A stretch of DNA of 51,921 nucleotides from Tolypothrix carrinoi HA7290-LM1 (GCA_019358935.1 JAHHIK010000059.1:1-51921), one strand, 5' to 3'; shown: positions 9,996 to 49,061, counted from the stretch's first letter. The notes: generated by a model from the sequence alone, not told the origin. Made by a program: numbers and translations.

Positions 9996-10307
9996 CCCTC
10001 ATCTTCTCTAGCAAGGGTTTTATGCTAGAATTTTGAAGCCTTTTCGCTTCTTTTTCCGCTAATGTAATTTTGGCACAAGCGATACTCACTGTTGAGAGTT
10101 CCTGCGCGATCGCTCATCACATCGATAATATATTAATCGCACTCAAAGCCAATCCATAAAGTAAACTAAGCCAGCTACATCCCCTATATAAACTTATCAT
10201 CTAATTGCCCTACAGTCGCCTCTAACCCTTTTGTGTTAGAATTTTGGAGTGATTTGACTTTAGTTTGTGTTTTAGCGAATTCACCCCCACGAATCAGGAG
10301 AAATTTC

Positions 10308-13300
10308 ATGACGAGCAGTTACAGTGCCGATCAGATTCAAGTTCTGGAAGGTCTGGAACCCGTCCGCAAACGACCGGGGATGTACATCGGTACCACTGGT
10401 CCAAAGGGACTTCATCATCTAGTTTACGAGGTGGTGGACAATTCCGTTGATGAGGCTTTGGCTGGGTACTGTACCCATGTGGAGGTGGAAATCAATGCCG
10501 ATGGTTCTGTGACGGTAACAGATGACGGTCGCGGTATTCCCACCGATACTGTCTCTAAGACGGGAAAATCAGCACTAGAAACGGTGATGACGGTACTCCA
10601 CGCTGGAGGTAAATTTGGCGGCGGTGGTTACAAAGTTTCTGGGGGATTGCACGGAGTTGGTATTTCTGTTGTCAACGCTCTATCTGAGATGGTTGAAGTT
10701 ACAGTTTGGCGAGATAAAAAAGTCCATGTCCAACGCTTTGAACGCGGTATTCCGGTTACTGAAATGAAAGTGAAGCCGTTGAAAGAAGCAAGAACCGGAA
10801 CTTCTATCACCTTCAAGCCAGATGAGCAAATCTTCACTACGGGTATTGAGTTTGATTACATCACTTTATCAGGTCGTCTGCGGGAATTGGCATATCTGAA
10901 TGCAGGTGTGAAAATTACCTTCACCGATAACCGTTTAGAATTACTTAAAAGCGATACCCCCAAGGTAGAAACGTATGAGTATAAGGGCGGTATCAAAGAG
11001 TATATCGCCTATATTAACCGCGATAAGCAGCCACTGCATGAAGAAATTATCTTTGTGCAGGGGGAACGTAACAACGTGCAAGTCGAGGTGGCTTTGCAAT
11101 GGTGTACAGATGCCTACACGGATAACTTGTTAGGATTTGCGAATAATATTCGCACGGTTGATGGTGGTACGCACCTTGAGGGTTTGAAGACGGTTCTGAC
11201 TCGCACCTTGAATGCGATCGCCCGCAAGCGCAATAAAATTAAAGACAACGAACCAAACCTCAGCGGTGAACACGTCCGTGAAGGTTTAACAGCGGTAATT
11301 TCCGTCAAAGTCCCCGAACCGGAATTTGAAGGACAAACTAAAACCAAACTCGGTAACACCGAAGTCCGGGGAATTGTCGATTCTCTTGTAGGTGAAGTTC
11401 TCACCGAGTACTTAGAATTTCGCCCTGGTGTTGCCGATGCTGTTTTAGATAAAGCCATCCAAGCTTTCAAAGCCGCAGAAGCAGCGCGTCATGCACGGGA
11501 ATTAGTCCGCCGCAAATCAGTACTGGAATCGTCGCCATTACCCGGTAAATTGGCAGATTGTAGCTCCAGAGATCCCGGTGAATCGGAGATTTTCATCGTC
11601 GAAGGCGATTCAGCCGGTGGATGTTTTTATTTATACACAAGAATTTTACTTACTGATGGACGTGTACTTACGCTAAAAGAGATTATAGACGAGCAAGAAC
11701 AAGGTAAACAGAACTTCTGTTACACCATTAGGGAGAGTGGCAACATAGGTGTAGAACGGATTATTAATGCCAGAAAGACTAAGGAAAATACGGAAGTTGT
11801 GAAACTGACCTTGGACAACGGCGAAACAATTATCTGCACGCCAGATCATCCCTTTATGTTGCGAGATGGTAGTTATAAAGCAGCAGAATTACTGACTCCC
11901 CAAGACTCGCTGATGCCCATACATCGCAAAATTTCCCAGAAAAATGAACGAGGAACTGGGCTGAATGGCTACGAAATGGTTTGGAATCCGTTGAAAGATA
12001 CATGGATTTACACCCATTTATTAGCAGATTTCTATAACCTTGAGCATGGTGTTTATCAGTCTTCAGGTAGATGTCATCGTCACCATGTCGATTTCAATAA
12101 ACTGAACAACAATCCGACAAACATCAAGCAAATGTCGCCGGAAGCGCACTTAGAACTGCATCGGCAAAACTTGGAAAAGACATTACATCGACCAGATGTA
12201 ATTGAAAAAAGCCGCCAAATTCATCAAAGTGAAGAATTTCGCGCTTTTATGAGCGAACGGATGCAGCAAGAACAAACGCGGCAAATTCTCTCAGAACAAG
12301 CGAAAGCGCAGTGGGAAGATGAAGTCTACAAGGCTTATATGCTTGCTAAATGGCGTGAATTTTATGAAAGTAATGAGACTTATCGGCAAGAAAATAGCGA
12401 GCAACTCAATCGAGCGCAACAAGAGTATTGGAGTGATGAAGCAAATCGTCTAACTCAATCTCAACGAGTGCGCGAGTACTTTGAAAATAATCCGATAAGA
12501 AGAAAGGTACTTTCGGAATTAGCGAAAAAACAATGGGAAGACAAAGATTTGTTAGATTGGCGGCGAGAAAAAACTAAGGAACAATGGACGTGGGAATTTC
12601 GCCTGCAACGTCGTGAAGCGTTAGAGAAAACCTACTATTTCAAAACTATTGCTGCTTTGAAGGAAGTAGAACTGCAACTTGGCTGTTTGGATTTGGAAGC
12701 TTATCAGTGTTATCGGAAGCGAACACGCGACAAATCTATGCTGCGTTGGGAGACTTTTTGCGATCGCTATTTTCATGGTAATCGCAGCCGAGCGCGTGAA
12801 GCCGTGAAAAATTATAACCATCGCGTTGTTTCTATCGAACGCTTGGAAGAAAGAATGGATGTTTACGATATCGAAGTTCCTAACTCTCACAACTTTGCTT
12901 TGGCAAGTGGTGTGTTTGTGCATAACAGCGCTAAACAAGGACGCGATCGCCGAACTCAAGCCATCCTTCCCCTACGTGGTAAAATCCTGAATATCGAAAA
13001 AACCGACGATGCCAAAATCTACAAAAACAACGAAGTTCAATCGTTGATTACGGCGCTTGGTTTGGGTGTAAAAGGTGATGAATTCGACTCTAGCCAACTG
13101 CGTTATCACCGCATAGTCATCATGACAGACGCTGACGTAGATGGAGCGCACATCCGAACACTGTTGTTAACTTTCTTTTATCGGTATCAGCGATCGCTTA
13201 TCGAACAGGGTTTCATATATATTGCTTGTCCGCCACTATATAAAGTAGAGCGGGGACGCAATTATTACTACTGTTATAGCGATCGCGAACTGCAACAGCG

Positions 13301-13550
13301 CATTGCCGAGTTTCCCGAAAATGCCAACTACACCATCCAACGGTTCAAAGGTTTGGGGGAAATGATGCCAGAACAACTCTGGACAACAACAATGAACCCA
13401 GAAACCCGCACCTTCAAACAAGTGGAAATTGAGGATGCAGCCGAAGCCGATCGCATTTTCACTATTTTAATGGGCGATCGCGTCGCACCGAGGCGTGAAT
13501 TCATTGAAACCTACGGTTCTAAACTTGACCTCACAGATTTAGACATCTAA
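10308..13550 (+). CDS. gyrB: DNA gyrase subunit B, intein-containing
   Basis: AGGAG RBS before ATG 10308; VRKRPGMYIG, GGLHGVG, EGDSAGG/SAKQGR split by an intein, MTDADVDG, QRFKGLGEM. Confidence 0.97.
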   Translation: MTSSYSADQIQVLEGLEPVRKRPGMYIGTTGPKGLHHLVYEVVDNSVDEALAGYCTHVEVEINADGSVTVTDDGRGIPTDTVSKTGKSALETVMTVLHAGGKFGGGGYKVSGGLHGVGISVVNALSEMVEVTVWRDKKVHVQRFERGIPVTEMKVKPLKEARTGTSITFKPDEQIFTTGIEFDYITLSGRLRELAYLNAGVKITFTDNRLELLKSDTPKVETYEYKGGIKEYIAYINRDKQPLHEEIIFVQGERNNVQVEVALQWCTDAYTDNLLGFANNIRTVDGGTHLEGLKTVLTRTLNAIARKRNKIKDNEPNLSGEHVREGLTAVISVKVPEPEFEGQTKTKLGNTEVRGIVDSLVGEVLTEYLEFRPGVADAVLDKAIQAFKAAEAARHARELVRRKSVLESSPLPGKLADCSSRDPGESEIFIVEGDSAGGCFYLYTRILLTDGRVLTLKEIIDEQEQGKQNFCYTIRESGNIGVERIINARKTKENTEVVKLTLDNGETIICTPDHPFMLRDGSYKAAELLTPQDSLMPIHRKISQKNERGTGLNGYEMVWNPLKDTWIYTHLLADFYNLEHGVYQSSGRCHRHHVDFNKLNNNPTNIKQMSPEAHLELHRQNLEKTLHRPDVIEKSRQIHQSEEFRAFMSERMQQEQTRQILSEQAKAQWEDEVYKAYMLAKWREFYESNETYRQENSEQLNRAQQEYWSDEANRLTQSQRVREYFENNPIRRKVLSELAKKQWEDKDLLDWRREKTKEQWTWEFRLQRREALEKTYYFKTIAALKEVELQLGCLDLEAYQCYRKRTRDKSMLRWETFCDRYFHGNRSRAREAVKNYNHRVVSIERLEERMDVYDIEVPNSHNFALASGVFVHNSAKQGRDRRTQAILPLRGKILNIEKTDDAKIYKNNEVQSLITALGLGVKGDEFDSSQLRYHRIVIMTDADVDGAHIRTLLLTFFYRYQRSLIEQGFIYIACPPLYKVERGRNYYYCYSDRELQQRIAEFPENANYTIQRFKGLGEMMPEQLWTTTMNPETRTFKQVEIEDAAEADRIFTILMGDRVAPRREFIETYGSKLDLTDLDI
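11622..12926 (+). mobile_element. GyrB intein (435 aa) with HNH homing endonuclease
   Basis: Begins CF after EGDSAGG; block B CTPDHPF; HHVDFNKLNNNPTN..H; block F VYDIEVPNSHNF; ends VHN followed by Ser. Confidence 0.95.
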
Positions 13551-13589: not shown

Positions 13590-14810
13590 TTACCTTGAGA
13601 TGAGGTGTTGCCAAGTCCAAGTCGCGATCGCCCAATCTTCTTGAGTATGTATCACAAGTACCCGCACACCCGATTCAGTGGTAGCAATATCCTCATCAAT
13701 CGGTTTGCGGGTATTTTTTTCTGGGTCAATTTTCATACCCAAAAATCCAAAGGCATCACAAGCAGCTTGGCGAATTGCTGGAGAATTTTCACCTACACCG
13801 GCGGTAAACACCAAAGCATCTAATCCCCCCAGACTGGCAAGCATTGCCCCAATCCCAGAACGCAAGCGATGTACGTACATATTCCAAGCTAGTTGGGCGC
13901 GATAATTGCCTTGGGCGATCGCCTCCATAACTTGCGGCAAATCGCTGGATACACCCGAAATTCCACGCAAGCCCGAAGCTTTATTTAAAACATAATCTAA
14001 GCGCTCGGCAGAGTAATTTGATTGCCGCAACAGATGAATCAAAATGCCCGGATCGACCGAACCAGAACGGCTGCCCATCATCAATCCATCCAGGGGTGTA
14101 AACCCCATTGTCGTATCAACACTGCGACCGTTTTTAATTGCTGCCAAAGAGCAACCATTGCCTAAATGACAGGTGATTATCCGTAAAGAAGCTAAATCTC
14201 GATTGAGAATCCCAGCCGCACGTTTAGAGCAGTATTCGTGACTGATACCATGAAAGCCGTAGCGACGGATACCTTGTTCTATCCATTCGTAGGGACCGGG
14301 ATAAATTGCCGCTGCATCGGGGATATGCGAATGAAAACCCGTATCAAAAACTGCCACTTGGGGTATATTTCCCAAGCTTTTCTCAATCGCTTCTATTCCT
14401 TCCAAAGCGGCTGGATTATGTGCCGGAGCGAGGTTAGAAAGACGAGCGATCGCCTTTTTCACTTCATCAGTAATTACCACACTAGCACGGTAATCTTGCC
14501 CACCATGTACCACCCGATGTCCCACCCCGTCGATCTCTGAAAGCTGACTAATCACCTTCGTGGAACCGCGAGTCAAGGTATGAAGCATATAAGCGACGTG
14601 TGCAGGTCGCGAATCAGCGTAGATTTCTTCCTCCAGCACCCCACCCGTAGCTGATTTCACGTTGATTTCTGCCACACCGCGATCTTGAGTCCATTTAACT
14701 TTACCTTCCCAAAGCGGTTCGAGTGGTTCTGTAGGCAAAGCTGATTCTGTTATTTCATACAGACAACTCTTTTGGCTGCTAGATCCGGCATTCAGTACCA
14801 ATATTTTCAT
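13590..14810 (-). CDS. ackA: Acetate kinase
   Basis: VLNAGSSS, GHRVVHGG, RRYGFHG, HLGNG, TMGFTPL, FTAGVGEN. Confidence 0.96.
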   Translation of the reverse strand: MKILVLNAGSSSQKSCLYEITESALPTEPLEPLWEGKVKWTQDRGVAEINVKSATGGVLEEEIYADSRPAHVAYMLHTLTRGSTKVISQLSEIDGVGHRVVHGGQDYRASVVITDEVKKAIARLSNLAPAHNPAALEGIEAIEKSLGNIPQVAVFDTGFHSHIPDAAAIYPGPYEWIEQGIRRYGFHGISHEYCSKRAAGILNRDLASLRIITCHLGNGCSLAAIKNGRSVDTTMGFTPLDGLMMGSRSGSVDPGILIHLLRQSNYSAERLDYVLNKASGLRGISGVSSDLPQVMEAIAQGNYRAQLAWNMYVHRLRSGIGAMLASLGGLDALVFTAGVGENSPAIRQAACDAFGFLGMKIDPEKNTRKPIDEDIATTESGVRVLVIHTQEDWAIATWTWQHLISR

Positions 14811-14914
14811 CGCTTTTTGTTGCCAGCAAGGTTTGTGAGCTATAGTTAGCGGTTCTCGAAGCTGCTTGATAAACTCTCTGTTAAAAGTTTAGTCAAAGGC
14901 AAAAGATAAAAGCT

Positions 14915-15180
14915 ATGAAGAAGCAATTATTATTGGCTCTGATGTTATTTGCTTTTATTTTTCCATCGTCCATTGCACAAAGCGAAAGATACAAGTCTTA
15001 ATTCTTTACAACAAGAAGCTACAACCGGACAGCTTTTACTTGCTAGATGGCGATTGACTCCACGACGGCAAAATCAACGGCGGATTGGCAAACGACGGGG
15101 TATAAAACGATTAAATCTCCGGCGACTGATTCCAAGACGAAGTGTCAAAAAACAAAGCCGGATGAGAATAAATCTCCTAA
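14915..15180 (+). pseudogene. 5' part of a small secreted Arg-rich protein gene, interrupted by the composite element (3' part at 18183-18241)
   Basis: Signal peptide MKKQLLLALMLFAFIFPSSIAQ, one extra A near 14981, then AKDTSLNSLQQE...RLTPRRQNQRR...RLNLRRLIPRR; continues in frame after 18182 as RFSPRKLIQRRVRRQKKGD*. Confidence 0.7.
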
Positions 15181-15360
15181 GCTCGACAAAATCCAAAATT
15201 CAGAACTCGGTTTTCTTTATCCAGCAAAAAGCTGGCAGTGAAGTGCAAATACTTTTTCTACGTCACAGATTATTGATGAAGTTCAAAAAGTAAAACTACC
15301 GTCCCACAGTGGTTTCAGTGATAGCGATCGCGTTGCGAAAAAAAATGGATTTTGTCGAGC
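15181..15360. mobile_element. MITE copy 1 (180 bp)
   Basis: Perfect 15-bp TIR GCTCGACAAAATCCA / TGGATTTTGTCGAGC; interior homologous to 18001-18179. Confidence 0.88.
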
Positions 15361-15467
15361 TTAGATGAGGCCATTACAAATGCCCTTAATGCAGTCACCA
15401 AAAAAGACATTATTGGATGGTTCACCCACTGCTGTTACTATATTTCACCCAACTGAGAATCGCTATA
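15361..15467 (+). mobile_element. IS630-family transposase 3' remnant with right end
   Basis: LDEAITNALNAVTKKDIIGWFTHCCYYISPN* followed by GAATCGCTATA, typical of cyanobacterial IS630 C-termini and ends. Confidence 0.75.
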
Positions 15468-15769
15468 GATCCACAAGCCCGCAAGAGCCACTCCGCGTTG
15501 CCGCCTCATCGCAACGAGTTGTTAAATCCTGGAAACCCAGATACGGCGTTCAAGAACCATCCATGCAAAAACTTATACTAAGGATACAAAACTCAACCCG
15601 TTAGACCGTAAAAGTAAAATATAATTCAATTGCGTTGATCCAAAAATGGACGGAGTACTTGGTTCTAAATCAATGGCGACTTCACTCAAACTACATCTCT
15701 GGGGAATTTGCGTCTGTTCACTAGAGCTTTAAGTTACTGCTTTATAAATATCAAAAAACTGAGGTCTTT

Positions 15770-17248
15770 ATGGGACAACCCATTTTTTCAAGCGGGCGAC
15801 TTCCAACACATCATGAAGGAATGCTAATTGTAAAGATGCGTTCGTCAGCCAGTCCTAGGGCAGCAATGGCTGTAACTCGAGAAACGGGGAGTTTGCTAGA
15901 ATCGCCGGGCTTGTTTGCTCTCTCGACGTTTGAGCGAGCCGGTTTAATCAAGCAAGTGACTCCTCTTGCTCGTCAGACTGAGGAGGAAATGCCTGCTTTA
16001 GGAATGCGACGCGTGATGACTGCCCTAGCCGCTAGCGCTGAGCGCGTACCTCCCGCAAACTCCAATGCGGGCGTAAGTATCATCGAGTTAGAGCGAGAGC
16101 GTGACGTCCCAGAGCTTCAAATCGCCCTGGCTAAAGATCCGAATGTAGAGTTTGTCTCGCGGGTTCCGGTTCGTTATTTGGTTTCACTAAATGTTCGCCC
16201 AGGACGGGTTCGCCCCAACCCAGTTCCCTCCGACGATCAACCGAGTAGCTCAAGCGCGGGTATTTTGGCTGTACCTCCTTCGACTATGTGGAATCTGAGC
16301 AAGATTAGTTGGGCAGAGGCAAGAGCACTTCAGGGCTTCAAGGAGGCTACCGACATTCGGGTAGCAGTGCTCGATACCGGTATTGATACTGCTCACCCAG
16401 ATTTGAAGGAGCGGGTGAGCAGTTATGTCTTTGAACACCCCGACTTGCCACTTGCTTCAGGTGAACGTGACATCATCGGTCACGGCACGCACGTTGCAGG
16501 TACAATCGCGGCTCTGGTTAATAACGACCTCGGCATTAATGGTATCTGTGAGTGCAAATTGCATATCTGGAAGATCTTCGATGACGAGTCTGATTTCATT
16601 TCATTTCGCGACGGATTTGCGTATTTTGTCGAACCTGTAATGTACCTACGGGCACTCGCTGACTGCTTGGATCAAGGTGTTGACGTAATCAACCTGAGCA
16701 TTGGTGGACCGGGAAGACCTGACGCTCAAGAACAGGCGCTGTTCGATGCTTTACTAGCTAATGGCACAACTATCGTCGCAGCGATGGGAAATGAACGAAT
16801 GGAAGGAAGCCCTACCTCATATCCGGCAGCAATCCCCGGCGTAATTGCCGTTGGTGCTACAAGTATCAACGATACCGTGGCAAACTTCTCAAACCGTGGG
16901 AATCATATCTCGCTCTCTGCTCCTGGCGTAGGGATCTGGTCTACCCTGCCAACTTATCCTGGTCAGTTTGGATTCGAGGCCATTCCAGGAGCAGACGGTC
17001 GCCCAATTGAGGGTAAACCGCTCCGCCGCGAAACGGATTATGATGCATGGAACGGCACCTCAATGGCTACTCCCAACGTTGTCGGTGCGGTAGCCCTGCT
17101 GCTGGCTAACAAAGGTAAGATGAGCGCTGATTCAGTGCGAATTCAGCTGACGAACACTGCGGACAAGGTGGCGGGGATGAGGGGCAGGAACTTTTCTCCT
17201 GATTACGGTGCAGGGAGACTAAATTTACTCCGCCTCTTGAGTGAGTAA
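15770..17248 (+). CDS. S8 subtilisin-like serine protease with N-terminal prodomain
   Basis: Catalytic motifs VAVLDTG, GHGTHVAG, GTSMATP and oxyanion AAMGN; GAGG RBS; no obvious signal peptide. Confidence 0.93.
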   Translation: MGQPIFSSGRLPTHHEGMLIVKMRSSASPRAAMAVTRETGSLLESPGLFALSTFERAGLIKQVTPLARQTEEEMPALGMRRVMTALAASAERVPPANSNAGVSIIELERERDVPELQIALAKDPNVEFVSRVPVRYLVSLNVRPGRVRPNPVPSDDQPSSSSAGILAVPPSTMWNLSKISWAEARALQGFKEATDIRVAVLDTGIDTAHPDLKERVSSYVFEHPDLPLASGERDIIGHGTHVAGTIAALVNNDLGINGICECKLHIWKIFDDESDFISFRDGFAYFVEPVMYLRALADCLDQGVDVINLSIGGPGRPDAQEQALFDALLANGTTIVAAMGNERMEGSPTSYPAAIPGVIAVGATSINDTVANFSNRGNHISLSAPGVGIWSTLPTYPGQFGFEAIPGADGRPIEGKPLRRETDYDAWNGTSMATPNVVGAVALLLANKGKMSADSVRIQLTNTADKVAGMRGRNFSPDYGAGRLNLLRLLSE

Positions 17249-17254
17249 GATTAT

Positions 17255-17683
17255 TCAGAGCAATCGACGCTCCGCTGGAGTAGATGCAGATTCAATCTCC
17301 GGCAGTGCTGACAAGCGCTTTAGTAGCGCTTCTATATCCATGTTGTTACTAACATATGCATAGCACATCCGGAGAATTTCAGGACGTTTGGCGTCAGGCT
17401 TGAGGCGTGCCGTTTTGCTGATTCCATCCCAGGTTTCAATCTGCGCCAGAATGGCATCTTGCCGTTCTGGCGACACATTAGGTCGGAAATTGAACATCAC
17501 TGAACGCATTGGAATAACCTTCTTGTAGGGAACATTCCTAACAATGAGTGGATTTTCTACTGCAAGGAACCCAGCTAGCTGCAATGTTAAGTTGGCAGCA
17601 GTAGCAGTATGAGTCCATTTGAATAGGGCTGGGTAAATGGCTAATAAGCTTATTAAACTTAGGCAGCAGATCAGGCGTTTCAT
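17255..17683 (-). CDS. Secreted protein resembling a stand-alone subtilase propeptide (candidate protease inhibitor)
   Basis: Signal-like N-terminus; VMFNFRPNVSPERQDAIL...DIEALLKRLSALPEIESA..RRL pattern resembles S8 prodomains. Function inferred. Confidence 0.6.
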   Translation of the reverse strand: MKRLICCLSLISLLAIYPALFKWTHTATAANLTLQLAGFLAVENPLIVRNVPYKKVIPMRSVMFNFRPNVSPERQDAILAQIETWDGISKTARLKPDAKRPEILRMCYAYVSNNMDIEALLKRLSALPEIESASTPAERRLL

Positions 17684-17790
17684 AACGCTATCTCAAACCT
17701 ATACATAGTAGTTACGTAATTAAGCAGTGTTGAAAACTTTAACTGATCTAATTTTTATTGATGATTAACTTTAATCTAACCTAGGTTTGG

Positions 17791-17985
17791 TGTAGAGCGA
17801 CAGATTATTTGACCGCAGCGACAAATTACAAGTCAACTTCTTTGTGCTTGTAAGCTTTACTGTAGGGGAGTTTGATTTTTAGAGTTTCTGACATGAAGTT
17901 GTAGAAATTGCAAAGAACAGATGCAGAAGGATTTAGATGGAGACAAACAATCTGACGCTCTGGTCAAATAATTCGTCGCTCTACA
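17791..17985. mobile_element. Miniature Tn7/CAST-like element consisting of paired TnsB-type ends
   Basis: TGTAGAGCGACAGATTATTTGACC ... GGTCAAATAATTCGTCGCTCTACA; TGT/ACA termini, two repeated GACA.ATTATTTG.C-like sites per end. Confidence 0.75.
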
Positions 17986-18000
17986 ATAGCCTTTAGCTTA

Positions 18001-18179
18001 GCTCGACTTTATCCAAAATTAACAACTCGGCTTTCTTTATCCGGCAAAAACCCTAGCAGTGAAGTGCAAATACTTTTTCCATGTCACTGATTCTCGATAA
18101 AATTAAAACACTAAAACTACCGTCCTACAAGGGTTTCAGCGTCAGCCTTTAGGTTTCGTAAAAATGGATTTTGTCGAGC
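18001..18179. mobile_element. MITE copy 2 (179 bp), same orientation as copy 1
   Basis: GCTCGACtttATCCA ... TGGATTTTGTCGAGC; shares GCAGTGAAGTGCAAATACTTTTTC and TAAAACTACCGTCC with copy 1. Confidence 0.88.
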
Positions 18180-18232
18180 TAAGGTTTAGCCCGCGAAAGC
18201 TGATTCAACGACGAGTTAGAAGACAGAAAAAA

Positions 18233-18612
18233 GGCGATTAAAATCGCGACTACACAGACAAAACCCACCTGCGTGGGTTTGAAAGCATTCATTTTTTCTT
18301 AAGTCCGCGTAGGCGGTGAGTCCAGCGCTCCTGGTTTCCCTCTTTTTGCAAAGACGCTGCTTTGTGAACGTGCCGGCAAGTCGCGAGGAGCGAAGGGACT
18401 TTGTTTGTATAGCCAAGCCAGTGCGTTGGTGAAGCAGCGCGGTCTTGGGGAGGCAGTGCGTTGGGGAGGCAGTGCGTTGGACGGGTTTCCCGGCTTGAAG
18501 CATCTGCCGTCGGCGGAGCCGACAGTCACGCACCTGCCGTGGTTTCCCCCATGAGCGACTGCACCAAAGGGTTTCCCGGCTTGAAGCATCTGGCGCGCGA
18601 ATTCTATTCGCC
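18233..18612. repeat. Cluster of REP-like and nested small dispersed repeats
   Basis: AAACCCACCTGCGTGGGTTT hairpin; repeated GGCAGTGCGTTGG starts and GGGTTTCCCGGCTTGAAGCATCTG ends. Confidence 0.8.
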
Positions 18613-19660: not shown

Positions 19661-19774
19661 ACATACTCCGTGAATGTTGTTTGCTTAGGATTTACTCATT
19701 CCCTTTTTCTTGACATCCTTCGCTGCACCTTCAATTCCAATTGTGGCAACTTTTCTTCACAATTGCCCATATCG

Positions 19775-20092
19775 GGGAGAGGGGGGAGTGGGGGAGTGGG
19801 GGAGTGGGGAGACAAGGAGGATAAGGGGGACAAGGGAGAAATTTTTCCAAGGAGTCCTCCTTGTCCACGCCAGTCGCCTCAACGGAGGGAACCTCCGCAC
19901 GGCGCTGGCTCCCCTTGTCCCCCTTATCCTCCTTGTCCACGCCAGTCGCCTCAACGGAGGGAACCTCCGCACGGCGCTGGCTCCCCTTGTCTCCCTTATC
20001 CTCCTTGTCCTCCTTGTCCTCCTTGTCCACGCCAGTCGCCTCAACGGAGGGAACCTCCGCACGGCGCTGGCTCCCCTTGTCCCCCTTATCCT
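19775..20092. repeat. 7-/9-mer tandem repeats with three identical 45-bp hairpin elements
   Basis: ACGCCAGTCGCCTCAACGGAGGGAACCTCCGCACGGCGCTGGCTC at 19867, 19939 and 20029, each inside CCTTGTCC-type 9-mers. Confidence 0.9.
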
Positions 20093-21897: not shown

Positions 21898-23256
<1,359 letters not shown>

Positions 23257-23470
23257 TCATCCCCCTTTTGAAAAGGTCTACTTTTTATTCTTCACATAAC
23301 GATCCTGACAGTCGCAGTGGGTTATGGCATATTTACTTGGCAAATTTTAAGGTTTTGAGCAGACTGAGTGTTTTGATGAGATTTTAATCACCAGCGGACA
23401 ATTAAAGTAGAACTCGCTAAAAATAACACTATAGTAAAGTTAGTCGTCCTGACTCTACTGTTGAATTTTT

Positions 23471-24981: not shown

Positions 24982-25057
24982 CCCAACTTCTCTTGTGCAG
25001 AGTTATCTAACATGTTTTTGCGACGTTTCAGCGGATTTACGTGAGATATTGCCCCGA

Positions 25058-25288
25058 AAACTCGAAACTTCGTGTTCAGAACTCGAAACTTGATGTTCAG
25101 AACTGGAAACTTCGTGTTCGGAACTGGAAACTTGATGTTCGGAACTGGAAACTTCGTGTTCGGAACTGGAAACTTCGTGTTCGGAACTCGGAACTTGATG
25201 TTCGGAACTCGAAACTTCGTGTTCGGAACTCCAAAATTTAAGCTTTGAACTCGGAACTTCGTGTTCAGAACTTGGAATGTCAAGTTTT
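25058..25288. repeat. Tandem array of about 11 x 21-bp units
   Basis: Consensus GAACT(C/G)GAAACTT(CG/GA)TGTTC(G/A), head-to-tail with no spacers; partial solo copy at 24281-24304. Confidence 0.92.
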
Positions 25289-25315
25289 ACAGGAGCATTC
25301 TAATTTTGGAAGCAA

Positions 25316-33434: not shown

Positions 33435-33565
33435 GGTTGTTAGTTGTTAGTGGTTAGTGGTTAGTTGTTGGGCATTTATCCCCCTTGTCCCCCTTGTCCC
33501 CCTTGTCCCCCTTGTCTCCCACTCCCCCACTCCCCCACTCCCCCCTCCCTACTCCCCACTCCCCT
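33435..33565. repeat. 7-/8-/9-mer tandem repeats
   Basis: GTTAGTG runs, CCCCTTGTC x4, CCCCACTC runs. Confidence 0.85.
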
Positions 33566-44448: not shown

Positions 44449-45390
44449 TTACTGACGCTGGCGATTTTCGGGAAAATAAGCGATACCCAAAGCTGCCGAC
44501 GGTGTGGATTTTCCTTTTTTGCTAACGAGGGCAAATAAGGCGATCGCGTAAGGTAACATTACCAAAAATTGATAGGGAATATTCGCACCCAATGCCTGTA
44601 TTCTTAATTGTAAAGCTTCTGTTGCCCCAAACAACAAACAAGCTAAGGCTGTACTTACAGGATGCCATCTACCAAAAATTAAAGCAGCGATCGCAATAAA
44701 TCCTTTGCCAGCACTCATCCCTTCCGCAAAAAACTTTATCTGTACTAAAGTTAAATAAGCTCCTCCCAAACTGGCAAGACATCCACTAATTATCACAGCA
44801 GTGTAACGCACAGTTTGCACCGAAATACCAGCCGTATCCGCTGCCCGTGGATATTCTCCTACAGCTCGCAAAGTTAGACCAAAGCTAGTATAAAACAAAA
44901 TGTATGTAGTTAAAGCAACGATTATTAATAATAAATATACTAAAATATCTTGCTGTAACAAAGCGCCAATTAGGGGAATATTGGCAAAACCGGGAATAAT
45001 AATTGCTGCAATTCCGGGCAATTGTTGAGCTATACCACCACTAAATATTAGCCGTGCTAAAAAAGATGTTAACCCAGCTGCGACAAGATTAATTGCTAAC
45101 CCAGATACCAACTGATCGACGCGCAAAGTTACACATAAAAAAGCATGAAGTAAACCCACGATTCCCCCAGCAATCAAGGCAGCGATTACACCAATCCACG
45201 GATTATCTGTGTAAAAGGTGGCAGCAGCACTGGTGAAAGCACCTGTAAGCAACATTCCTTCTAAGCCAATATTTAGAACTCCTGAACGTTCAGAATAAAG
45301 TCCTCCCAAAGCAGCGAATGCGAGGGGAACAGCTAAACGTAGGGTAGCAACGAGGTAATCAAAGAAGAAGTTAAGATTGTCATTTGTCAT
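44449..45390 (-). CDS. Nucleoside/sugar ABC transporter permease
   Basis: SERSGVLNIGLEG, GLTLRAVGE.P.AA, GKGFIAIAALIFGRW. Confidence 0.92.
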   Translation of the reverse strand: MTNDNLNFFFDYLVATLRLAVPLAFAALGGLYSERSGVLNIGLEGMLLTGAFTSAAATFYTDNPWIGVIAALIAGGIVGLLHAFLCVTLRVDQLVSGLAINLVAAGLTSFLARLIFSGGIAQQLPGIAAIIIPGFANIPLIGALLQQDILVYLLLIIVALTTYILFYTSFGLTLRAVGEYPRAADTAGISVQTVRYTAVIISGCLASLGGAYLTLVQIKFFAEGMSAGKGFIAIAALIFGRWHPVSTALACLLFGATEALQLRIQALGANIPYQFLVMLPYAIALFALVSKKGKSTPSAALGIAYFPENRQRQ

Positions 45391-45604
45391 TTGTTGGTTG
45401 TTGGTTAGTTGTTATTTGTTGGTGGTTGGTGGTTGGTTGTTATTTGTTGGTTGTTGGTTGTTATTTGGGCACCCTCACCCTAGAAGGGTGGACGGCAGAT
45501 GCTTCAACGCGGGGAACCCGCGCAACGCACTGCCTCGGCTATACAAACAAAGTCCGCGATTAGGCGGACTAAAATGATTTTTGTTGGAATCTTACGTAAA
45601 GATG

Positions 45605-47454: not shown

Positions 47455-47510
47455 ACTAATTATAAAAGTTAGCAGTTAATAGTTAGGAGTTAAGAGTTAA
47501 GAGTTAGGAG

Positions 47511-49061
47511 TTAGAAGTTAATTATCCCCTTGTCCCCCTTGTCCCCCTTGTCCCCCTTGTCCCCCTTGTCCCCCTTGTCCCCCTTGTCCCCCTTGTCCCC
47601 CTTGTCCCCCCCTCCCCCTGCCATCAACAAACCCACCTCCTCGACTGTCGCTGTTGCTGCATCTAAAATATCCAGAAACTCACCTCTGTAAATTACCGCA
47701 ATGCGATCGCTCATTGCCATCACTTCCTCTAACTCAGTAGAAATATACAAAATTGCCGCACCGCGTTTTCTTTCTGCCAACAAGCGAGAATGCACTGCTT
47801 GAGTTGCCCCTACATCTAATCCCCTTGTCGGTTGCATTGCGACAATTAATAGCGGTTCCCCCGTCAATTCTCGCGCTAACACCACCTTTTGTTGATTTCC
47901 TCCCGACAAGTGACTTACCTTCACATCTTCCCCCGTTGCCCGAATATCAAACTCTTGCATTGCAGACTTAGCGTGATTTTTAATTGCTTCTTTCTGTAAT
48001 AAAAAGCGACGAGAAAAAGGCAACTTTTTAAAAGTCTTTAAAATCAGGTTTTGGGCAATACTAAATTGCAATACCAAACCCATTTTTTGCCTATCTTCCG
48101 GAATGTAACCGATATTTTTGACGGCAAACTCGATTTTACCGCTTTTAACAAATTGTAAATTTGTTATGGCATCTGCTAATTCACGCTGTCCGTTGCCATC
48201 AACACCCGCGATTCCTAAAATTTCTCCGGCTCTAAGTTGAAATGAAACATCACGCACAGCAGTAAGATTTCTCTCATCTACAACTTGCAAATTCTGCACC
48301 GATAAGACAACTTTACCAGGTGAAACTGCTGATTTATTTAACTGTAAAACAACTTCACGTCCCACCATCAATTCTGCTAATTGTTGAGGTGTAGCTTGTT
48401 GAGTATTTGTATTTGCTACTACCTTTCCCCGTCGCAACACCGTTACTGTATCGCAGAGATTCATCACTTCATCAAGCTTGTGACTGATAAAAATAATTGT
48501 GTTTCCATTTGCTGCAAGTTGGCGGAGAATAGCAATTAAAGATTTCACTTCGGGGGGTGTTAATACTGCTGTCGGTTCATCCAAAATCAACAATTTTGCT
48601 TGGCGGTAAAGAACTTTAAGAATTTCTACTCGCTGTTGCGCTCCTACTGGTAAATCAGCTACTCTCATACTGGGGTCAATTTCTAATTTATAAGCTTGGG
48701 ATAAAGCAGCTATTTCTTCTTGTTTTTGCCGCAGATTTAAACGCCAGCTTTTCTCAGTTCCCAGAATGATATTTTCGGTGACGGTTAACTGAGGTACAAG
48801 CATGAAGTGTTGGTGAATCATGCCGATACCTTGATTAATTGCGTCTTTTGAAGATGCAAAATTTACTGCTTTATCTTGGAGATAAATTTGACCTTCGTCA
48901 GGTTGATATAAACCACTAATGATGTTCATTAAAGTGGTTTTTCCGGCTCCATTTTCACCTAAAATTGCATGAATTCCAGGTTCAATACTTAGGCTAATAT
49001 TATCGTTAGCAATAAATGAACCGAAGCGTTTGGTGATTTTTTCTAAACGTAAATATGACAT
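47511..49061 (-). CDS. Nucleoside/sugar ABC transporter ATPase (two ABC domains)
   Basis: GENGAGKT, ILDEPT, LSGGNQQK, QPTRGLD; repeat-derived (GDK)9 tail. Confidence 0.94.
   Translation of the reverse strand: MSYLRLEKITKRFGSFIANDNISLSIEPGIHAILGENGAGKTTLMNIISGLYQPDEGQIYLQDKAVNFASSKDAINQGIGMIHQHFMLVPQLTVTENIILGTEKSWRLNLRQKQEEIAALSQAYKLEIDPSMRVADLPVGAQQRVEILKVLYRQAKLLILDEPTAVLTPPEVKSLIAILRQLAANGNTIIFISHKLDEVMNLCDTVTVLRRGKVVANTNTQQATPQQLAELMVGREVVLQLNKSAVSPGKVVLSVQNLQVVDERNLTAVRDVSFQLRAGEILGIAGVDGNGQRELADAITNLQFVKSGKIEFAVKNIGYIPEDRQKMGLVLQFSIAQNLILKTFKKLPFSRRFLLQKEAIKNHAKSAMQEFDIRATGEDVKVSHLSGGNQQKVVLARELTGEPLLIVAMQPTRGLDVGATQAVHSRLLAERKRGAAILYISTELEEVMAMSDRIAVIYRGEFLDILDAATATVEEVGLLMAGGGGDKGDKGDKGDKGDKGDKGDKGDKGDKGIINF

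Follow-up and report, generated by a model that had tools for sequence, protein, structure and literature searches.

The DNA described here is a window of 51,921 nt from Tolypothrix carrinoi HA7290-LM1 (GCA_019358935.1 JAHHIK010000059.1:1-51921), part of a 7.96-Mb assembly (G000) of 184 contigs, none of which is shorter than 10,054 bp. Between ackA and tal, the window holds a 2,999-bp insert bounded by a pair of MITEs (miniature inverted-repeat transposable elements) of ~180 bp, MITE1 and MITE2. The insert is probably a non-autonomous composite transposon, now fossil. Throughout, G001-G010 denote congeners, other G numbers relatives' genomes, L numbers loci of the MITE family, and X numbers sequencing runs. 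The features of the locus are as follows, with TIR standing for terminal inverted repeat, IS for insertion sequence and ORF for open reading frame.

14915..15180, + strand: 5' part of the target gene, whose product is Arg-rich and small (~105 aa in congeners) and begins with a signal-peptide-like stretch; frameshifted, its own frame ending after 28 aa
15177..15181, + strand: left copy of the target duplication, CTAAG, with its TAA core at 15178-15180
15181..15360, + strand: MITE1, 180 bp, with a perfect 15-bp TIR (15/15) of the minority AAA type at both ends
15361..15467, + strand: 3' stump, with the right end, of an IS630-type element, 107 bp, 83-86% identical to G000 C78 and C96
15468..15719, no strand: spacer, with a 72-bp match in G019
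15770..17248, + strand: subtilase (Peptidase_S8), 492 aa, catalytic motifs D202, H238 and S431, intact-looking
17255..17683, - strand: partner ORF, 142 aa with an 84-aa core, a conserved neighbour of this subtilase family
17791..17985, no strand: third MITE-like element, ~195 bp with ~35-bp imperfect inverted repeats, unrelated to MITE1 and MITE2
17997..18001, + strand: inner CTTAG site of MITE2, a probable remnant of its earlier insertion
18001..18179, + strand: MITE2, 179 bp, TIR match 12/15, with a TTT-type left TIR and an AAA-type right TIR
18179..18183, + strand: right copy of the target duplication, CTAAG, with its TAA core at 18180-18182
18183..18241, + strand: 3' remainder of the target gene, holding the third copy of its Arg-rich motif

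MITE1 and MITE2 lie in identical orientation and agree at 146 of 178 aligned positions (82%), with their final 20 bp identical. Both are short, TIR-bounded and without a transposase, as expected of MITEs, and the MITE hairpin is stable (z -4.7). A first-pass annotation had described two diverged, directly oriented elements sharing a single TIR; the pair is as described except at the inner TIR of MITE2, which takes the TTT form and not GCTCGACAAAATCCA. The exact AAA-form 15-mer is confined to three MITE ends in the whole 7.96-Mb assembly, so the sharing of this TIR is not due to chance. The two outer TIRs (MITE1 left and MITE2 right) make up a perfect 15-bp pair, and both limits of the insert fall on TIRs. 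The flanks, also as annotated, are unmatched for each MITE alone (TAA-MITE1-TTA and TTA-MITE2-TAA) and match on the outside, TAA with TAA. All four MITE junctions read CTWAG, a 5-mer with a frequency of 0.0012 per base in the window. As in a composite transposon, the cargo between the MITEs contains no transposase beyond a 31-codon IS630-type stump. Elsewhere in G000 there is no third full MITE and no further TIR pair; what remains is one decayed piece on C41 and one mini remnant on C118.

The evidence that carries most weight is the empty site. Deleting 15181-18182, which is the insert plus one TAA, reopens the Arg-rich frame up to a stop ending at 18241 and restores the third motif copy, just as the first-pass annotation had proposed. 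A search of 40 relatives placed ackA and tal close together in all 10 congeners, where the segments cut between the two genes measure 216-1,110 bp vs 3,843 bp in the window and the TIR is absent (10/10). The junction itself is spanned by four of the ten (G001, G003, G005 and G010). With 2,999 bp and one TAA removed, the left and right flanks join in each of these without a gap; in length controls that kept both or neither TAA, the same four congeners showed 3-nt gaps. The insert thus has a direct repeat outside its outer inverted repeats and an uninterrupted empty allele in relatives. G002 has a short deletion across the site, and the remaining five congeners lack this part of the gene. The Arg-rich protein is uninterrupted in G003, G005 and G010 (~105 aa, third motif copy included). 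A +1 frameshift is common to the window and G001, and the target gene was therefore probably already nonfunctional before the insertion. As a separate observation, 3/10 congeners keep this secreted-looking Arg-rich gene of the ackA-tal interval intact; G002 has an altered version, and in the others it is broken or missing.

We consider it probable that the two MITEs carried the 3-kb piece as one unit, by their outer ends and in one step. At a donor locus, two MITEs of the family would have inserted independently at CTTAG sites separated by ~2.6 kb, and an IS630-type transposase gene would have received one of the two. An IS701_3-type DDE transposase, supplied in trans by a full-length IS of the same TIR family, would then have used the outer end of each MITE, moved the 3-kb piece to a CTAAG and duplicated that site; the gene hit between ackA and tal would by then have carried its frameshift. 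The empty allele supports the earlier proposal that the whole unit moved as one into a CTAAG site, and movement in a single step is the likely, inferred part of it. The single-step reading best accommodates limits that fall on TIRs, an intact duplication, inner junctions that are themselves target sites, a transposase stump cut at a MITE and two diverged copies. The IS630-type homology begins exactly at the TTA beside MITE1, where TTA is a Leu codon of the transposase frame; its 5' part is missing, and the same edge, 15361, is found in run X3. A stump cut exactly at the inner edge of MITE1 is expected if the donor DNA was cut at the MITE.

The divergence of the two copies bears on the same question. 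The best relative of MITE1 is 87% identical, in G064, and MITE2 is 89% identical to a copy in G005. Because the 82% identity between MITE1 and MITE2 is lower than either that 89% or the 91% between the left flank and G001, the two MITEs are not twins made in this event. A replicative cointegrate origin is ruled out by the same 18% divergence. Nearest relatives, taken by thirds of the MITE bodies, revealed no reciprocal chimerism and no crossover inside the bodies. The background chance that both MITEs would mismatch their own flanks is ~0.15 squared. Since ~15% of lone copies of the family have mismatched flanks of their own, the unmatched flanks of MITE1 and MITE2 are suggestive only.

Several observations weigh against this reading. 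One contig of run X3 (depth 2.3) joins 15254-15341, in the MITE1 body, to 18160-18230, the right TIR and flank; this fits either a precursor with MITE1 alone or a collapse of the two 20-bp ends, which are identical. In another X3 contig (depth 2.4), 15142 is linked to 15720 by 23 other letters, which look like the end of the third MITE-like element. The insert was found at no second site or donor locus, and its cargo is rare in the collections searched. No congener carries TAA at the empty site, and the exact 12-mer that the first-pass annotation predicted there was not found; the absence of TAA from the congeners means that the target triplet arose in the lineage of the window. The cognate transposase was not found in G000 or its 10 congeners by protein or profile search. 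Finally, the matching outer flanks amount to one bit and are weak evidence. The outer TAA likewise matches at MITE pairs of G282 and G005, with inner DNA syntenic with the left flank in relatives, and neither was retained as a second composite: at G282:C3 the inner genes adjoin the left flank in G071, G177 and G234, and at G005:C109 synteny in G000 ties the inner edge to the left flank, with no empty allele in 5 congeners. Given the mismatches of lone copies and these two unsupported pairs, it is the empty site that carries the argument.

The alternative that survives best, though we think it unlikely, is that a solo MITE1 occupied the CTAAG first and that a MITE-cargo-MITE block then recombined in, leaving the same end sequence. 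One crossover would fall within the body of MITE1 and another in the short right end common to both MITEs; alternatively, the block would have come in as a circle with a single hybrid MITE. The X3 join of 15254-15341 to 18160-18230 would be such a precursor, the final 20 bp of the two MITEs are identical even though the closest relative of MITE2 has a TTT-type right end, and the available text of PMC3934969 offers either transposition or homologous recombination for MITE-flanked integrons. This scheme nonetheless needs a crossover within 10-20 bp. The X3 join is one contig of depth 2.3 that could have arisen by collapse or as a library chimera, and the X3 cargo pieces have the same depth. Lone copies with a TTT-type left and an AAA-type right end exist in G009, G169 and G188, and G001 has this 20-bp end as well, so that the MITE2 end needs no special event.

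Stepwise local accretion is strongly disfavoured. Foreign DNA would have entered via the IS630 element, the third MITE-like element or illegitimate recombination, the MITEs would have arrived independently, and deletions would have trimmed the whole to the TIRs. The cargo is indeed pieced together from mobile remnants, other elements often adjoin family sites (CTC-TWA or TWA-GAG context at 46/74), run X4 holds 15720-17985 without MITE1 or MITE2 among the pieces listed, and the X3 contig joins 15142 to 15720. Against this, both deletions must have spared host DNA to the base and left a net 3-bp duplication. An assembly artefact or chance repeat, which the fragmentation into 184 contigs might suggest, is barely credible beside a single unitig across 14300-18095 in the likely source run (0 differences), a contig covering 14905-16360 in an independent air metagenome (depth 2, 0 differences across the left junction) and the gap-free empty allele.

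As to the MITE family, its TIR pattern is present in 164/300 family genomes (reversed control: 0 among the genomes listed). MITE2 also has matches on 17 plasmid records, and these belong without exception to Nostoc, Calothrix, Trichormus or Aulosira. From 77 loci, 57 copies were recovered, 53 of them distinct. Matching TWA flanks surround 40 of these, 6 have a mismatch at the middle base, and 7 are otherwise irregular (one with TCA on both sides); the elements thus form a dispersed multicopy family with target duplications, as MITEs do. The middle-base mismatch affects 6/46 lone copies and, in a hand count, 11/75 complete pairs in ten MITE-rich genomes. TTT at both ends is the family consensus TIR (47/53 copies), so three of the four TIRs of the insert are of the minority AAA variant, which also occurs in congeners G001 and G009. 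An exact 15-mer scan of a wider collection returned at least 120 stretches; among the 80 listed there was one match per locus and nearly all were non-cyanobacterial, and the result was set aside as chance. The TIR string had no match in a text search of the literature, and the family may already be catalogued in cyanobacterial MITE surveys or ISfinder.

Three further loci of the family (L170, L171 and L174, in G169 and G100) are palindromic mini-elements of 26 bp that consist of two AAA-type TIRs overlapping each other, with TWA flanks that are inverted, not direct, in all three; a degenerate copy lies in G000:C118 near 15826. The CTC-TWA or TWA-GAG context of family sites is often the end of another repeat that starts GAGGATG, and tandem and inverted MITE clusters occur at such sites (L249, L250 and L251).

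The length of the target duplication was assessed on 74 sites from 133 loci, after dropping 12/87 elements without T-N-A on both sides; because 8 loci had been picked for mismatch and those elements were dropped, the figure 21/74 from this set is not a rate. A non-consensus base stands at CTWAG position 1 or 5 in 35 cases among the 74 sites. The odd base is present on both sides in 17 of the 35; in another 13 it stands only on the outer side, opposite a consensus inner base, and in 5 only on the inner side. Odd edge bases also occur in the full-length elements L214 and L216. The terminal G thus often comes from the target, which favours reading the duplication as 5-bp CTWAG and taking CTCGAC as the start of the element. 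The TWA-duplicating transposase of the first-pass annotation thus keeps its TWA core and gains a base on either side; in the window itself, the 3-bp and 5-bp readings yield an identical empty allele. Donor bases may sometimes be carried into the new site, and later rearrangement could also explain the mismatches. Carry-over of donor flank bases is a piggyBac-like behaviour. It would, if true, explain the frequent one-sided mismatches at middle and edge bases. Speculatively, and with considerable doubt, this IS701_3 MITE family, widespread in heterocystous cyanobacteria and seemingly without a name so far, might act as a portable gene-capture system that pairs copies 18% apart and imports foreign genes, its transposase cutting CTWAG with a 5-nt stagger and sometimes carrying donor flank bases.

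A candidate helper transposase was reached through L175, a 437-bp AAA-type element in G214 that keeps a transposase 3' end between its TIRs. This fragment matched 24/200 family genomes and led to the autonomous IS that the first-pass annotation had anticipated, which turned up in relatives, with no match in this assembly or its 10 congeners. Full-length copies with the family TIR are L213, L214, L219 and L225. L213 (1,477 bp, perfect TTT-type TIRs) and L214 (1,550 bp) have matching flanks and NF049999 transposases of 451-452 aa; L219 has a middle-base mismatch in its flanks. All three transposases scored (3/3) match PF13546 and the IS701_3 model NF049999 with 357-366 bits (cut-off 170); against the main IS701 model, NF033540, the partner IS scores 52-60 bits (cut-off 150). 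Similarity between MITE and IS is limited to the TIRs, which makes the MITE type II. In G000 there were 8 weak family matches, 0 above the cut-off, in a search whose positive control detected 4/4 family genomes. The best of them, a 455-aa DDE frame at G000:C82:27070-28510, was rejected as helper; its own long inverted repeats are unrelated to the family TIR. Run X1 contains a 1,110-bp unitig at chromosome depth with another family end and no G000 contig is below 10,054 bp, so a transposase missing from the assembly may still be present in the organism.

The partner IS shares with the IS701 family a single DDE_5 transposase above the NF049999 cut-off and the lack of Tyr in the YREK position (in the translation, Phe replaces Tyr before R-x3-E, leaving YREK incomplete). 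Its size of 1,477-1,550 bp lies within the 1,400-1,550 bp given for IS701 (PMC2266710). Compared by eye with the IS701 end consensus in Table 1 of that paper, which is not family-wide, it agrees at 5/7 positions when started from CTCGAC and at 3/7 from G. The target duplication differs: the part of PMC2266710 available gives 4 bp for IS701, whereas the partner IS has an invariant 3-bp core within 5 bp (NTWAN). The accessible text of PMC8944449 has nothing further on IS701 duplication length.

The cargo is dominated by the subtilase gene, which has a GC content of 52% vs 42% for the genome. Its best homologs are 74% identical; the few close ones that are named belong to Acidobacteriota, Pontibacter and Xanthobacteraceae, and those on Sinorhizobium plasmids are at 53%. 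A search of 250 family genomes at E<=1e-80 did not find the subtilase, and HIP1 sites number 0 in the cargo vs ~2.6 expected. We regard the gene as foreign to its host. The partner-ORF core, not found in 400 phylum genomes, has a predicted ferredoxin-like fold (pLDDT, the predicted local distance difference test, 90), and its 58-aa N-terminal extension is of full or near-full length in 13/22 relatives listed. In 5/6 metagenome loci, the ORF comes after the subtilase and shares its strand; in the window it is inverted (convergent). A role as a subtilase-propeptide-like inhibitor is an unsupported guess: the profile comparison was not significant (probability 0.1-1%), and Foldseek gave generic ferredoxin-like folds, with no propeptide among the matches listed. 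In one atlas cluster set, Fervidolysin_NPro-like domains occur in 10% of members. The third MITE-like element is single-copy in G000, with homologs in G021, G005, G010 and run X4. Run X4 holds the subtilase, the ORF and this element at ~92-97% over 15720-17985, a resemblance that hints at a cyanobacterial intermediate host. A scan for promoters and terminators was at chance level (3 vs 4.1 and 3 vs 3.3), and no RNA data set was among the listed holders of the sequence. The IS630 label of the stump comes from reading the C78 frame and not from a profile search. The C78 region itself (G000:C78:12500-14770) consists of nested transposase remnants, in which an IS630-type 3' part is fused in frame behind another DDE transposase, beside a third.

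Composites bounded by MITEs are established. Transposition of a TIME-COMP has been trapped experimentally (PMC4133298, as far as its available text goes), and new TIME-COMPs have been mined from databases (PMC13367494, likewise in part); IMU-bounded blaGES-5 belongs to the same kind. In the descriptions accessible there, TIME-COMPs resemble the insert in having two transposase-less MITEs around a cargo of 2-4 kb, outer inverted repeats that are themselves flanked by direct repeats, and the need for a transposase in trans. Those elements have 38-bp Tn3 inverted repeats, identical or near-identical copies and a proposed replicative movement; the insert, in contrast, has 15-bp IS701_3-type TIRs, 18% divergence, a CTWAG target, a cyanobacterial host and a subtilase cargo. 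The insert works like a TIME-COMP and is not one, as it lacks the 38-bp Tn3-family inverted repeats. In Acinetobacter, according to the portions available of PMC3934969 and PMC10969869, 439-bp MITEs flank class 1 integrons with 5-bp direct repeats. That case, as presented in the same portions, shares with ours directly oriented non-Tn3 MITEs, insertion into an ORF and a cargo truncated at the MITE edge; its MITEs are identical, without a known parent IS, at several sites and with resistance cargo, whereas for the insert the type of parent IS is identified and a single site is known.

Cyanobacterial MITEs such as Nezha, Muzha, MaeMITE and those of Anabaena resemble MITE1 and MITE2 in being 130-230 bp long and AT-rich, with TIRs and a stable hairpin; filled and empty sites and a cognate IS in another species are also alike (PMC3184786 and PMC3542288, within their available text). 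The accessible parts of these two papers describe no composite. No cyanobacterial or IS701-type MITE composite was found in the literature searched.

The window has other features apart from the insert. A gyrB-like ORF at 10233-13550 (1,105 aa) has, in its translation, an insertion from ~CFYLYT to VFVHN that may be an intein. A 21-bp tandem array of ~10 overlapping units occupies 25017-25310, and tracts of 7-9-bp tandem repeats lie at 19774-20092, 22950-23280, 33439-33564, 45379-45464 and 47468-47654. Short tandem repeat tracts of this kind are typical of Nostocales.

The novelty of the insert is that a composite of a kind known from antibiotic-resistance elements is here built with a different transposon family. 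As one insertion, probably inactive, in a broken gene and with no evident benefit, it is of moderate importance. Nonetheless, it represents gene import by MITEs outside clinical resistance, and with a filled site, an empty site, a target rule and a candidate helper transposase at hand, it is a directly testable case. The flank statistics additionally yield a testable prediction, for a little-studied subgroup of IS701, of the geometry with which the transposase cuts. For the Nostocales, the finding implies that annotation based on transposases overlooks a route of horizontal gene gain.

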